DNA of 16,909 nt from a virus. The notes beneath the pieces are model-generated. The model had not been told where the DNA came from and ran no database searches. It saw only the letters and a list, made by a program, of their open reading frames with translations. This document shows positions 5,417-14,043 of this stretch, piece by piece (within the stretch, counting starts at the first letter, position 1; each line of letters starts with the position of its first letter). Both the position numbers and the translations under genes were made by a program. Location: the UHGV virus genome UHGV-0043514; one strand, written 5' to 3'.

Positions 5417-5956
5417 ATGAGTAACTGGTGGCAGGAACTATTACGTTTCTTCCTGCGTGGTCTTACGCTACAACAGTTAATTCATATGCTTATTATTTTA
5501 ATTGCCTTGATAATAATCACCCCTGCATCAATTAAAGAGTGGGTAGATATAAGGAACCCAGAAATACTTCCAGATCACTGGATGTATTACGCAATGCTTT
5601 TGTGTATCAGTTATGTTCTGAACAGGGTGATGGAGTTTATATTTCTGGCATCTTCAGACAGATATAAAAAATATCTCAGTAAGAGAGATGAGGCTAAAGT
5701 AATTGTGGAGACTGAGCGCCTGTTCAATTCTCTGAGTATTCAGGAAAAAGAGGTTTTAGCATTTGCTGTTATGGCAAATAACAAAATCGTACTTAAGCAC
5801 GGCGATCCGGTCGCTTTATCTCTTATGAGAAAAGGCCTTCTCCATCGCTCAGGTGTGACTTACAGCGCGTCAGGTAAAGAGAAATTTGTTATACCTGACG
5901 TCTGGTTCCATGAGTGTTATATGCGCTTTGCTGGTAAAGCTGATGAGCTAATTTAG
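5417..5956 (+). CDS. sieB: SieB-like superinfection exclusion membrane protein (179 aa)
   Basis: Two N-terminal hydrophobic segments (LIHMLIILIALIIITPASI; WMYYAMLLCISYVLNRVMEFIFLA) and a soluble C-terminal half; rightward gene convergent with N, as I recall sieB in lambda; GGAGA Shine-Dalgarno 7 nt upstream. Confidence 0.5.
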   Translation: MSNWWQELLRFFLRGLTLQQLIHMLIILIALIIITPASIKEWVDIRNPEILPDHWMYYAMLLCISYVLNRVMEFIFLASSDRYKKYLSKRDEAKVIVETERLFNSLSIQEKEVLAFAVMANNKIVLKHGDPVALSLMRKGLLHRSGVTYSASGKEKFVIPDVWFHECYMRFAGKADELI

Positions 5957-6564: not shown

Positions 6565-7215
6565 TTAAGGAAGGTTTGCTAGCTTGGCATCAACGACAAC
6601 GCCAATGATTTTACAGTTCCCATTGATTTCAATCATTGGGTATTGTGGATTGAGTGGTTTCAGGAATTTTCTACCGGCATCAATAACTAACTTTTTGAAT
6701 GTCGCCTCGTTTTCTCCTTCAAGTTTGGCGACTACCAGCTTTCCATTACGTGGTTCGACTTCTGGGTCGACGAGAATAATCATCCCCTCAGGAATACTCA
6801 GTCCTGCCGGGGCAGTCATTGAATCGCCTTTAACGTCGAGCCAAAAAGAGTCTTCAGAACAATCTACCGTTGTGTCGTACCAGTTATCTATTGCACGCCT
6901 ATGATATGGCTCTACAGCTTCCATCCAACATCCTGCGCTTACCCAACTAATTAGAGGATACGAACCTCTTGGATCATGCCTGCTGTGATAGGCAATGTTT
7001 GAAAGACTATCCTCTCCTTTCAACAGGTAATCAGGGGAGCACTGCAAAGCCTTGGCTAAGGCCAATAGGTTTTCGCCATTGGGCTCAGTTTCAGATCGCT
7101 CCCATTGGGAAATAGCAACATTAGACACGCCAACCATCTTGCCAAGGGCAGCCTGCCTAATCTTGAGTTCTTTTCTGCGAGCGCGAATACGCTCACCCAT
7201 CAGTTGTGTATTCAT
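6565..7215 (-). CDS. cI: Phage repressor, P22 C2 type (216 aa): N-terminal helix-turn-helix, C-terminal LexA-like autopeptidase domain
   Basis: MNTQLMGERIRARRKELKIRQAALGKMVGVSNVAISQWERSETEPNGENLLALAKALQCSPDYLL... matches P22 C2 as recalled; catalytic-domain motifs GDSM and KLVVAKLEGENEATFKKL. Confidence 0.93.
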   Translation of the reverse strand: MNTQLMGERIRARRKELKIRQAALGKMVGVSNVAISQWERSETEPNGENLLALAKALQCSPDYLLKGEDSLSNIAYHSRHDPRGSYPLISWVSAGCWMEAVEPYHRRAIDNWYDTTVDCSEDSFWLDVKGDSMTAPAGLSIPEGMIILVDPEVEPRNGKLVVAKLEGENEATFKKLVIDAGRKFLKPLNPQYPMIEINGNCKIIGVVVDAKLANLP

Positions 7216-7295: not shown

Positions 7296-7481
7296 ATGTA
7301 CAAAAAAGATGTTATTGACCACTTCGGAACCCAGCGTGCTGTTGCTAAAGCACTAGGCATTAGCGATGCAGCAGTCTCTCAGTGGAAAGAAGTTATCCCA
7401 GAGAAAGACGCCTATCGATTGGAAATCGTTACAGCTGGCGCCCTGAAGTATCAAGAAAGTGCTTACCGCCAAGCGGCATAA
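7296..7481 (+). CDS. cro: Cro repressor (61 aa)
   Basis: MYKKDVIDHFGTQRAVAKALGISDAAVSQWKEVIPEKDAYRLEIVTAGALKYQ; helix-turn-helix; divergent from the repressor gene; GGAG Shine-Dalgarno. Confidence 0.9.
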   Translation: MYKKDVIDHFGTQRAVAKALGISDAAVSQWKEVIPEKDAYRLEIVTAGALKYQESAYRQAA

Positions 7482-7596: not shown

Positions 7597-7893
7597 ATGG
7601 CACAAGCAAGCTACAGCAAGCCAACACAGCGAGAAATTGATCGCGCAGAAACAGATTTACTCATCAACCTGTCAACGCTTACCCAGCGCGGTCTGGCAAA
7701 GATGATTGGCTGTCATGAATCGAAGATAAGCAGAACGGACTGGAGATTTATTGCTTCGGTCTTGTGTGCTTTCGGAATGGCATCAGACATCAGTCCGATT
7801 AGCAGGGCTTTTAAGTATGCGCTTGATGGACTCATCAATAAAAAACGCCCGGCGGCAACCGAGCGTTCTGATCAAATACAAATGGGATTTTAA
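7597..7893 (+). CDS. cII: CII-family transcriptional activator (P22 C1-like, 98 aa)
   Basis: C-terminus NKKRPAATERSDQIQMGF is nearly identical to the lambda CII C-terminus (KKRPAATERSEQIQMEF); helix-turn-helix in the centre; position after cro and nutR. Confidence 0.88.
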   Translation: MAQASYSKPTQREIDRAETDLLINLSTLTQRGLAKMIGCHESKISRTDWRFIASVLCAFGMASDISPISRAFKYALDGLINKKRPAATERSDQIQMGF

Positions 7894-10807: not shown

Positions 10808-11185
10808 ATGGACGAATCAAGAAAGCAGTTTGAAGAAAGTTGGTTGCGACGTGGAGGCGAATCATCAGACCTTATCCGTTACCCTGAAAATTACCATGAA
10901 ATTGGCAGTGGTGATATTGGTGGTCAATACGTGATGGACGATGTTCAAGGCCACTGGCAAACGTGGCAGGCATCGCGAGCAGCTATTGAACTGGATATCG
11001 ACTGGCCCGAATCGAATGACGACTTTTGGAAAGATGGTGAAGAAGGTGCTTATGCGATGGGGCATGAGGATGGGAAGGACAAAACGGTAATTGCAGTGAT
11101 GAAAGCTATCAGAGCCGCTGGAATTAAAGAGAAGAATTTCGATGAAGCAAATATACATACTTCGCAACGAAGCAATCAGAAATAA
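10808..11185 (+). CDS. Hypothetical acidic phage protein (125 aa)
   Basis: ATG with GAGGGT upstream; Asp/Glu/Trp-rich (DIDWPESNDDFWKDGEEGAYAMGHEDG); overlaps the ninB start by 44 nt. Confidence 0.5.
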   Translation: MDESRKQFEESWLRRGGESSDLIRYPENYHEIGSGDIGGQYVMDDVQGHWQTWQASRAAIELDIDWPESNDDFWKDGEEGAYAMGHEDGKDKTVIAVMKAIRAAGIKEKNFDEANIHTSQRSNQK

Positions 11186-11588: not shown

Positions 11589-12112
11589 CTATCAAATCAA
11601 ATACGCCATCACACGACAAGGACTGCTGGCAAACGCCGCTTTGGCTTTTTGATGCGCTGGATATTGAGTTTGGATTCTGGCTGGACTCGGCAGCGAGCGA
11701 CAAAAATGCTCTGTGCGCTCACTGGCTAACTGAGGCCGACGACGCGCTAAATTCTGAGTGGATAAGCCACGGTGCAATCTGGAATAACCCACCGTACAGC
11801 AATATCAGGCCGTGGGTGGAAAAAGCCGCTGAGCAGTGCATACAACAGCGACAGACGGTAGTTATGCTTGTGCCAGAGGATATGTCAGTCGGATGGTTCA
11901 GCAAGGCTCTGGAGAGTGTCGACGAAGTTCGCATTATCACTGATGGACGGATTAATTTTATCGAACCATCGACAGGGCTGGAGAAGAAGGGAAACAGCAA
12001 AGGCTCCATGCTGCTGATTTGGCGACCGTTCATCAGTCCTCGACGGATGTTTACTACCGTATCCAAAGCGGCATTGATGGCGATCGGGCAGGGCGTCAGG
12101 AGGGCGGCATGA
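11585..12112 (+). CDS. dam: Phage orphan DNA N6-adenine methyltransferase (Dam-like; 175 aa from ATG 11585, the track's ORF starts at 11558)
   Basis: Catalytic NPPY motif (IWNNPPYSN); N-terminal [22 protein letters not shown] typical of phage Dam-type methyltransferases; ATGA overlap with the ninB stop; no restriction endonuclease partner seen. Confidence 0.8.
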
Positions 12113-12285
12113 GGCGACAGCGACGAAGTTTCACCGACATCATCTGCGAAAACTGCAAATACCTTCCAACGAAACGCTCCAGAAATAAACGCAAGCCAAT
12201 CCCAAAAGAATCTGACGTAAAAACCTTCAATTACACAGCTCACCTGTGGGATATCCGGTGGCTAAGACATCGTGCGAGGAAATAA
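12109..12285 (+). CDS. ninE: NinE-family protein (58 aa)
   Basis: [58 protein letters not shown], near-identical to lambda NinE as recalled; ATGA overlap with the methyltransferase stop. Confidence 0.8.
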
Positions 12286-12290
12286 GGGGA

Positions 12291-12320
12291 TTGACGCGAT
12301 GATTTATCCGGGGCTATATT
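12291..12320 (+). promoter_or_regulatory. Sigma70-like promoter (TTGACG, 17-bp spacer, CTATAT/TATATT) immediately after ninE
   Basis: -35 TTGACG at 12291-12296; -10 CTATAT at 12314-12319; predicted start near 12327. Confidence 0.5.
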
Positions 12321-12381
12321 CCCAGCATGCCAGCAAAATCTGGCGTCGGGATTGGCGTCCCGGATAGAGACCGCGACAGAC

Positions 12382-12404
12382 ACACGCCGCGAGCGTGTTT
12401 TTTT
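12382..12404 (+). terminator. Strong intrinsic terminator (ACACGC-CGCGA-GCGTGT followed by T7)
   Basis: 6-bp GC-rich stem, 5-nt loop, then tttttttatt; about 75 nt downstream of the predicted start of the 12291 promoter. Confidence 0.6.
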
Positions 12405-12565
12405 ATTGTCGAATGCACGCGCACATCTGAATTATGGTGGGCTGTGTGGGGGCGGAGAGATCCGCGCCGGTCGGTTTCCCGGTTACGCCAACCCTGCACA
12501 GTTCACCACCAGACGATTGGCGTCGTCGGTGGTGAGTTATTTAGAAACCACTCGAGGGCGTCATT

Positions 12566-13246
12566 ATGACAACTCAAATCTCTGTTGAAACTCTCTCCCC
12601 GATCACCCATAACCAGATTCCTGTTATTACCACCGAACTTTTGGCGCAGCTTTATGGCACAGAAATTCTGAACATCCAGGTTAACTTCACCAGAAACAAA
12701 GAGCGTTTTGTCGAAGGAAAGCACTTTTTTAAAGCATCTGGTGAGGAATTAAAAAATTTGCGACTTACTTTAAGTAAGTCACAAAACCCCATATCTCCCA
12801 AAGCCCGCTCCCTTATCCTCTGGACAGAACGCGGAGCAGCCCGTCATGCAAAAATGCTCGAAACCGATCAGGCGTGGGATGTGTTCGAAAAACTGGAAGA
12901 CTGCTATTTCAGCGAGTGCGAGAAAAATACTGGCAAACAAGAGAAGAAGCCCAACGGGCTTTCCGCAAAAGAAACAGACATCCTTGTATGGCTGTGGGAT
13001 TATGCCAACCGCTCACAGGCATTGTTCCGTGAGTTGTATCCCGCATTAAAACTGATTCAGTCTGGCTATTCCGGCATATGCCACGACTACGGCTATGAGT
13101 TCTCGTATATCATCGGGAGGGCGAGGGGCGTTTTAATTAATCACACGCGGGATATAGATATTTATGAGCCTGACGGGCCGACGAACCTTCTGGCATGGGA
13201 AAGGCTTAAGAACAAAGAGTTGCCGCCTTCACTGCATCGCTACTGA
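12566..13246 (+). CDS. ORF6N-domain (KilA-N-related) phage regulatory / antirepressor-like protein with an unassigned C-terminal half (226 aa)
   Basis: N-terminal half ([16 protein letters not shown]...[19 protein letters not shown]...[38 protein letters not shown]) fits the ORF6N pattern as I recall it; residues from about 120 to 226 match nothing I recognise; GAGGG Shine-Dalgarno 7 nt upstream. Confidence 0.6.
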
Positions 13247-13263
13247 CAATTGACAACTTAACA

Positions 13264-13288
13264 AACCCAGCTTCGGCTGGGTTTTTTA
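13264..13288 (+). terminator. Intrinsic terminator (AAACCCAGC-UUCG-GCUGGGUUU followed by T-run), bidirectional in form
   Basis: Perfect GC-rich stem with UUCG tetraloop, flanked by an A-run upstream and T6 downstream; 18 nt after the ORF6N gene stop. Confidence 0.6.
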
Positions 13289-13314
13289 TTGCTGAATTTT
13301 CAATGTGAGAGGAC

Positions 13315-14043
13315 ATGACAATGAATGAGCTGATAAATAACAATGCCATCAAAATGACAAGCATTGAAATCGCTGAGTTGGTGGGAAGCCAACACGGTAA
13401 TGTCAGAATATCAATAGAACGTCTGGCAAAGCGTGGGGTGATTCAACTTCCTCCAATGCAAAAAGTTGAAAATAAACAAACAATTAGCCCTAACAAATTC
13501 ACAAGCGTGTATATATTCGAAGGCGAACAAGGTAAGCGCGATAGTATCATTGTCGTCGCCCAGTTGTCGCCAGAGTTCACCGCTCGCCTTGTTGACCGCT
13601 GGCGAGAACTCGAAGGGGCAACCGCGAAAATCCCACAAACCTTCTCTGAAGCATTGCGCCTCGCGGCTGACCTTGAAGACCAGAAGGCTGAACTGGAGAA
13701 ACAGCTTGCTCTCGCAGCACCTAAAGTTGATTTTGCCGATCGCGTTGGCGAGGCCAGCGGAATTTTGATTGGAAACTTTGCAAAGGTTGTTGGAATTGGT
13801 CCAAACAAACTGTTTGCGTGGATGCGCGATCACAAAATCCTTATTGCTTCAGGTTCCCGGCGCAATGTGCCAATGCAGGAATATATGGATCGCGGCTATT
13901 TCACAGTGAAAGAAACAGCGGTCAACACAAATCACGGAATACAGATATCGTTCACTACAAAAATCACCGGACGTGGCCAACAGTGGCTGACCAGAAAGTT
14001 GCTCGATAACGGAATGCTGAAAGTAACAGGGGAGGCTGCTTAA
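13315..14043 (+). CDS. Phage antirepressor-type protein: Rha-family N-terminal domain plus KilAC C-terminal domain (242 aa; start may be ATG 13321 or 13354)
   Basis: N-terminus MTSIEIAELVGSQHGNVRISIERLAKRGVIQ (Rha-like); C-terminus DFADRVGEASGILIGNFAKVVGIGPNKLFAWMRDHKILIASGSRRNVPMQEYMDRGYFTVKE (KilAC pattern); GAGAGG Shine-Dalgarno suits ATG 13321. Confidence 0.8.
   Translation: MTMNELINNNAIKMTSIEIAELVGSQHGNVRISIERLAKRGVIQLPPMQKVENKQTISPNKFTSVYIFEGEQGKRDSIIVVAQLSPEFTARLVDRWRELEGATAKIPQTFSEALRLAADLEDQKAELEKQLALAAPKVDFADRVGEASGILIGNFAKVVGIGPNKLFAWMRDHKILIASGSRRNVPMQEYMDRGYFTVKETAVNTNHGIQISFTTKITGRGQQWLTRKLLDNGMLKVTGEAA

Follow-up and report, generated by a model that had tools for sequence, protein, structure and literature searches.

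An antirepressor-family gene behind an IsrK/C4-type leader in a mosaic lambdoid prophage of Escherichia coli

The locus considered here raises two questions: what the C-terminal half of a phage protein with an ORF6N-type N-terminus is, and whether the gene that encodes it is regulated on its own. The gene lies in UHGV virus genome UHGV-0043514, a stretch of 16,909 nucleotides (referred to as the window) that represents a mosaic lambdoid E. coli prophage. A first-pass annotation, made from the sequence alone, described an open reading frame (ORF) with an ORF6N-type N-terminal half, a C-terminal part of about 110 residues matching no domain, and a terminator-bounded transcription unit of its own that suggested independent regulation. 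The ORF itself was confirmed: it starts with ATG, lies on the plus strand and encodes 226 residues, with the C-terminal protein sequence exactly as quoted. Taken together, the evidence points to a probable prophage antirepressor gene (ant) that is controlled by its own RNA-based cassette, and the mechanism set out below is included in that estimate.

Both halves of the product correspond to Pfam families, as judged by the curated gathering thresholds (27.8 bits for ORF6N and 22.4 bits for P22_AR_C). The N-terminal assignment was borne out by a match to ORF6N (PF10543) at residues 12-97 (nucleotides 12599-12856; 76.3 bits, E 2.3e-21). The C-terminal region is not without a domain, as had been claimed, but matches the full P22_AR_C model (PF10548, model positions 1-73) at residues 126-198 (nucleotides 12941-13159; 82.2 bits, E 2.8e-23), and residues 123-226 (nucleotides 12932-13243) show 82% identity with the C-terminal end of phage P22 Ant (85/104, without gaps and up to the last residue of both proteins). 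A confident profile match of this region to a known domain, which the annotation had itself named as evidence against its reading, is for the most part what P22_AR_C provides. The structure prediction that had been proposed as a check yielded a model of the C-terminal domain (pLDDT 77) with three helices, arranged as a long antiparallel helical hairpin and a short helix, yet fold comparison of this model returned only generic helical bundles and no informative fold. A full-length AlphaFold2 model built from a 29-sequence alignment was discarded (pLDDT 48); the family is too uniform to supply a deep alignment.

Along its whole length the product matches PHROG 377, 'anti-repressor Ant' (E 1.8e-82), and the C-terminal 106 residues suffice for a match to the same family (E 2.9e-34). 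The exact 226-residue sequence is already present at NCBI as 'phage antirepressor Ant [Escherichia coli]', and proteins of this kind are labelled 'P22AR C-terminal domain-containing protein' by PGAP. Identity over the full length is 81% to Ant of the Stx2 phage Phi24B, and identity to the ant product of VT2-Sakai is 92%. P22_AR_C is an unusually narrow and conserved domain: 1.84 billion proteins yield only 26 clusters of it at 50% identity. It is C-terminal among all domain partners examined, and identity stays at about 80% even though it is joined to at least four different N-terminal partners. Within ant, an inverted repeat with a 13-bp stem (12757-12785) resembles a terminator on the minus strand. 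It sits in the variable middle of ORF6N, where the VT2-Sakai protein carries an 18-residue insertion, and it may be a chance occurrence or a recombination scar.

Homology with P22 starts at codon 123 ("GKQEKK") and continues through the stop codon into the terminator, whose core hairpin and T run are identical to the annotated P22 ant terminator (NC_002371, 16012-16035). Residues 1-118, the ORF6N part, are 71% identical to AnrP of the Salmonella prophage Gifsy-1. As the P22 homology is confined to the segment from codon 123 through the terminator, and the leader and ORF6N are of AnrP type, ant is a chimera; by sequence comparison, an AnrP-type leader and ORF6N module are joined to a P22-type C-terminal module and terminator. 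A terminator scan of the window found no overall enrichment (5 sites compared with 3.7 +/- 2.1 in shuffled sequences); the two hairpins that flank ant both match defined terminators, the upstream one that of the isrK model and the downstream one that of P22 ant. The coordinates of the gene and its associated features are compiled in Table 1.

Table 1. Features of the ant locus and related stretches (window coordinates unless a comparison record is named)
Feature	Position	Strand	Basis or content
Promoter-like site	12291..12320	+	-35 TTGACG, 18-nt spacer, -10 TATATT; 10/12 consensus matches (scan)
c4-a1b1	12314-12366	+	Rfam RF03163, 49.8 bits; overlaps the isrK match
IsrK-like small RNA	12327..12403	+	Rfam RF01394 isrK, 73.6 bits (gathering 50), full-length model
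Box b1 in IsrK	12352-12358	+	UUGGCGU
Box a1 in IsrK linker	12367-12373	+	GAGACCG
IsrK intrinsic terminator	stem 12382-12398 + U run	+	Terminator scan; corresponds to the hairpin in Rfam isrK
C4-type antisense RNA	12430..12513	+	Rfam RF01695 C4, 66.7 bits (gathering 45), full-length model; 52 nt 5′ of the ant ATG
Leader ORF, 33 codons	12434..12535	+	AUG aligned with the first AUG of Gifsy-1 orf45; stop 30 nt before the ant ATG
Alternative GTG leader ORF, 41 codons	12444-12569	+	Ends in ATGA overlap with ant
C4 loop a'	12471-12478	+	UCGGUUUC; pairing core GGUUUC
C4 single-stranded element b'	12485-12491	+	ACGCCAA
Target region on ant mRNA	12515..12558	+	Box b2 UUGGCGU 12517-12523, box a2 GAAACC 12544-12549, Shine-Dalgarno GAGGG 12554-12558
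ant ORF	12566..13246	+	ATG start, 226 aa, antirepressor-family protein
ant intrinsic terminator	13263..13290 (hairpin 13263-13284)	+	ACCCAGCTTCGGCTGGG + T run; terminator scan
Resident immunity repressor	6565..7215	-	HTH_3 + Peptidase_S24 (Pfam); 93% identical to P22 C2 over 215 aa
Immunity region ORFs	6565-7215 (-), 7296-7481 (+), 7597-7893 (+), 5417-5956 (+)
Comparison-record stretches bearing on leader annotation	L001 4110-4283; L004 18262-18330; L008 1438-2097; L007 1971-2426

The 280-bp interval between ninE and ant holds matches to three Rfam families above the gathering score, isrK, c4-a1b1 and C4, all on the plus strand. The start predicted from the promoter-like site, at about 12327, coincides with the first base matched by isrK. 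Both promoter hexamers are conserved in VT2-Sakai, Phi24B and Gifsy-1 and slightly altered in PA2, JLK-2012 and IdasGreatGrand, and the hexamers and the IsrK terminator of the window align with those of Gifsy-1, where the isrK promoter is required for anrP transcription (PMC4825925, Table 1A). By analogy, the site would act as a promoter in the window; promoter activity and RNA processing are both expected there by homology. Neither a LexA box nor a P22 operator was seen near the promoter when the leader was read by eye. Of the terminator-bounded unit, the two hairpins are indeed present, but the upstream one is the IsrK terminator and lies inside the ant transcription unit rather than at its boundary. 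Independent regulation is probably correct all the same, for a different reason, namely the promoter-like site, the IsrK-like small RNA and the C4-type RNA that the gene has of its own.

A leader ORF begins at a conserved AUG at the 5′ end of C4, and across 10 loci it extends for 15-48 codons with neither its length nor its frame conserved. A conserved AUGA coupling of this ORF to the antirepressor start was considered and rejected, as the overlap occurs only in Gifsy-1 among the ten loci; in the window the ATGA overlap is reached in frame from the GTG at 12444 alone. A coding role of the 33-codon ORF is doubtful, and a role in translational coupling might be supposed by analogy with Gifsy-1. 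Two longer plus-strand ORFs that overlie the isrK and C4 RNAs (12327-12569, 80 residues; 12352-12588, 78 residues) are probably spurious. In VT2-Sakai (orf34), Phi24B and phiP27, hypothetical proteins are annotated over the corresponding stretch; in phiP27, L16 joins the leader to a Rha-like ORF, and the Bro-like gene of a Klebsiella phage probably starts about 235 nt 5′ of its annotated start. The leader interval thus holds two or three RNA genes, for which many phage records give hypothetical proteins or no entry.

The boxes within this leader are mutually complementary. The b' element of C4 is complementary to b1, which lies in IsrK, and to b2, which lies just 3′ of C4; the a' core (GGUUUC) is complementary to a2 (GAAACC), located 4 nt 5′ of the ant Shine-Dalgarno sequence, and also to a1 if one G-U pair is included. 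The Shine-Dalgarno sequence, as placed by motif mapping, is itself 7 nt 5′ of the ATG. The trio of isrK, C4 and c4-a1b1 also precedes ant in Phi24B and VT2-Sakai, anrP in Gifsy-1, and other Bro-network genes in six further phages (phiV10, the Klebsiella phage, phiP27, PA2, JLK-2012 and IdasGreatGrand), and the leader alignment comprised these loci and the window (10 loci). In this alignment the b':b1 and b':b2 helices are paired in 70/70 cells, and four of the seven pairs are changed on both sides (15 doubly changed cells). None of 500 shuffles reached the covariation score of the b helices, and when the helices were slid as a control, just 19-51% of the cells were paired. Joint changes of the a' and a2 boxes are seen in Phi24B, phiV10, the Klebsiella phage, phiP27, PA2 and Gifsy-1, at positions where the alignment is not in register, and in phiP27 the a2 box overlaps the Shine-Dalgarno sequence. 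Box b falls into five sequence classes among the 10 leaders, with the cores GGCG, AGCA, GGUC, GGAA and CGAA, and at least three of these classes occur among Stx phages (VT2-Sakai and the window; Phi24B and JLK-2012; PA2). A matrix of longest contiguous pairings between non-cognate C4 RNAs and targets proved too noisy when G-U pairs were allowed, and in-register covariation was used in its place.

The genes that stand behind this type of leader are varied. They include a Bro-N gene in phiV10, a Rha-like gene in phiP27, a gene in PA2 that combines ORF6N with a third type of C-terminus, and one in IdasGreatGrand that combines Bro-N with P22_AR_C. In phage JLK-2012 (1542-3255) the leader is followed by a truncated ORF6N-P22_AR_C gene (179 residues), and behind it stand an Arc-like repressor gene and a second ant, so that a pair resembling P22 immI is placed in the nin region.

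The closest systems are ant of the Stx2 phage Phi24B (vB_EcoP_24B, HM208303, ADN68426.1), ant of VT2-Sakai/Sp5 and antA of phage 2851. They have the same ORF6N and P22_AR_C composition, isrK/C4 leader and terminator as the window gene and the same position, between ninE and roi and 5′ of Q. Phi24B and the window differ in the RNA class of the leader (box b UUAGCAC/GUGCUAA in Phi24B, UUGGCGU/ACGCCAA in the window), in the repressor (CI as against a P22 C2-type protein) and in the genes 5′ of Q (ninG as against ybcO/rusA); VT2-Sakai Ant differs from the window protein by the insertion in ORF6N noted above. In a Phi24B ant knock-out, pR'-lux output after norfloxacin falls to about 27-31% of wild type and is largely restored by a plasmid copy, and deletion of ant leaves superinfection unaffected (PMC3064807). 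The authors concluded that Ant accelerates derepression during induction and cautioned that an action on CI was unproven (PMC3064807).

P22 Ant (NP_059643, immI region) resembles the window protein in its C-terminal 104 residues and its terminator, and the P22 repressor C2 in turn resembles the repressor resident in the window. The N-terminal domain is P22_AR_N in P22 Ant and ORF6N in the window, and the setting differs as well: P22 ant belongs to a late operon under the control of Mnt, Arc and the sar antisense RNA, whereas the window gene lies in the nin region behind an IsrK/C4-type leader. No arc, mnt or sar flanks the window gene, which has ninE and the isrK/C4 leader upstream and roi downstream, and what the locus shares with P22 is only the 3′ part of ant and the terminator. 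P22 Ant binds repressor non-covalently and thereby abolishes operator binding; it inactivates C2 as well as the repressors of the phages L, lambda and 21, although P22 induction does not need it (PMC3121763).

The isrK-orf45-anrP locus of Gifsy-1 (Hershko-Shalev et al. 2016, PMC4825925) shares with the window the promoter, the IsrK small RNA, a C4-like segment (STnc1160) and ATGA at the antirepressor start. There, short IsrK supplied in trans acts on the read-through transcript and raises translation of orf45 and anrP more than 100-fold, and expression of AnrP raises antQ transcription and induces Gifsy-1 (PMC4825925). Unlike the window protein, AnrP (187 residues) lacks P22_AR_C and has an unrelated C-terminus; comparison of the P22_AR_C alignment with this C-terminus by hhalign showed no relation. 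The Gifsy-1 locus lies 3′ of Q and is followed by isrJ, whereas that of the window lies 5′ of Q, and a search of the window for isrJ found nothing, either at the gathering score or at E<=5. The orf45 equivalent, which overlaps the AUGA in Gifsy-1, is out of frame in the window and ends at 12535.

A further parallel is the immI region of phages P1 and P7 (c4 antisense RNA - icd - ant1/ant2), in which a C4-family RNA is likewise co-transcribed 5′ of the antirepressor gene, complementary target boxes stand on both sides of C4 with the downstream ones at the ribosome-binding region, and the boxes fall into covarying specificity classes that in P1/P7 are the basis of heteroimmunity. In P1 the C4 RNA represses antirepressor synthesis, and the C4 segment is processed to a free antisense RNA. 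P1/P7-type control also involves icd, an upstream ORF on whose translation ant expression depends; of the small ORFs in the window leader, the 33-codon one and the GTG one, neither keeps its frame or length across the 10 loci. In the window, unlike in P1/P7 immI, the first element is also a terminated small RNA (IsrK), and the locus lies in a lambdoid nin region, not in a plasmid prophage.

The surroundings of ant are those of a lambdoid prophage. The gene order ninB-dam-ninE-ant-roi, followed by recombination genes, ninH and Q, is common to the window, Phi24B and VT2-Sakai; the neighbours of ant in the window are ninE, roi, ybcO, rusA, ninH and Q. The gene directly 3′ of ant (13315-14043, plus strand) is of Roi type, with a weakly Rha-like N-terminus and a KilAC/ANT C-terminus, and two Bro-network genes are therefore adjacent, as in Stx phages. 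The NinE ORF (12019-12285, plus strand, 88 residues, TTG start) exceeds the NinE family model, which spans residues 31-88, and its real start is probably an internal ATG overlapping the end of dam. For a 125-residue ORF (10808-11185, plus strand) between the gene for a DnaB-like helicase and ninB, Pfam gave no match at E<=0.001. A mosaic is formed by the nin, Q and lysis regions, common to other E. coli prophages, and the immunity region is of P22 immC type, with a C2-like repressor, a Cro of the P22_Cro family, a CII homologue and an exclusion gene of the SieB family. The resident repressor shares 93% identity with P22 C2, so that the natural target of a P22-type C-terminal domain is present in cis, and it is presumed, by analogy with P22, to be the target of Ant.

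The following mechanism is proposed. Transcription would begin at the IsrK-type promoter, or at pR under N antitermination after induction, and most transcripts would end at the IsrK terminator. On those that read through, a' and b' of C4 would pair with a2 and b2 beside the ant ribosome-binding site and switch translation off, and the decoy boxes b1 and a1 of IsrK would lift this block, in the way described for IsrK and anrP of Gifsy-1. In the manner of P22 Ant, the protein would then bind the resident C2-like repressor non-covalently, and such binding would speed derepression and lytic development. The biochemical role of P22_AR_C would carry over from P22 Ant; the domain is most likely the module that contacts the repressor, and this is the least supported step of the scheme. 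Binding of the repressor by the window protein is suggested by P22 Ant and by the near-identity of the resident repressor to C2, and promotion of derepression or induction by Phi24B Ant and by AnrP with its shared ORF6N. Several observations count against the mechanism: AnrP works without P22_AR_C, P22 Ant is dispensable for P22 induction, the C-terminal model resembles generic helical bundles only, and the stop-start coupling seen in Gifsy-1 is not kept from the homologous AUG in the window.

The first of these bears on the division of labour within the protein. Ant may instead act on the repressor through ORF6N, with P22_AR_C, a helical hairpin, as only an oligomerisation or stability module; we regard this reading as improbable but deserving of weight. 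AnrP, with the same ORF6N and an unrelated C-terminus, still induces its prophage, and the predicted hairpin of the C-terminal model has a shape common in oligomerisation domains. P22 Ant, conversely, inactivates C2-type repressors with P22_AR_N in place of ORF6N; P22_AR_C is the sole part that it has in common with the window protein, whose prophage has a C2-type repressor, and the conservation of this domain over its diverse N-terminal partners suggests a conserved partner surface.

N-terminal modules of the Bro/KilA-N network are predicted to bind DNA, and Ant could accordingly be imagined as a sequence-specific regulator of KilA-N/ORF6N type that promotes late genes directly without touching the repressor. 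This is unlikely, even though ORF6N is a member of that network of domain-swapping phage regulatory proteins (PMC10111431) and the Phi24B data record reduced pR' output only and no repressor binding. The C-terminal domain and terminator are common to a biochemically defined antirepressor, the control cassette is common to P1 ant and Gifsy-1 anrP, and the protein has no known DNA target. Over-expression of some KilA-N-type proteins is toxic, which, together with weak PADLOC matches to the candidate family PDC-S05 through ORF6N alone (E 1.5e-7), could be taken to indicate a gene for host killing or phage exclusion, a reading implied by the checks proposed in the annotation. Such a defence role is very improbable: PADLOC gave no match over the C-terminal domain, no defence-system partner genes were found among the neighbours of ant, and toxicity, if any, could reflect prophage induction. 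That the C-terminal half constitutes a new, unassignable domain has next to no likelihood, as it is refuted by the Pfam match and the identity with P22 Ant and is at odds with the PGAP naming; what speaks for it is that a PDB search by sequence found no match, and so no solved structure for P22_AR_C, that no NCBIfam model matches this half, and that the fold comparison was uninformative. The reading of ant as an RNA-controlled antirepressor gene, with P22_AR_C in contact with the repressor, is preferred to all of these.

The gene is thus an already known antirepressor gene that is widely annotated and of which one orthologue has been studied experimentally, and the IsrK/C4 leader is also a known kind of element, represented by Rfam families, P1 immI and Gifsy-1 isrK. 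Matches to the stretch 12286-13314 were obtained from 280 phage records, of which most are Stx-converting phages, and from 1374/5426 complete E. coli genomes, with the annotation "phage antirepressor Ant", "P22AR C-terminal domain-containing protein" or "ORF6N domain-containing protein"; an antirepressor of this type is standard equipment, carried by roughly one in four complete E. coli genomes and by the majority of Stx phages. As such antirepressors affect the speed with which Stx prophages switch to lytic growth, they influence toxin release. Some single E. coli genomes contain up to 7 matches to this stretch, and action in trans between co-resident prophages is accordingly conceivable. We put forward, tentatively and as a possibility rather than an expectation, that the IsrK/C4 leader and its exchangeable Bro-network antirepressor form a portable second layer of immunity in lambdoid and Stx prophages, with at least five RNA classes, in which P22_AR_C recognises S24-type repressors. 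If this were true, C4-like RNAs could repress, and IsrK-like RNAs could activate, the same-class antirepressors of co-resident prophages, and both cross-induction and Shiga toxin output would be tuned by RNAs of the same class.
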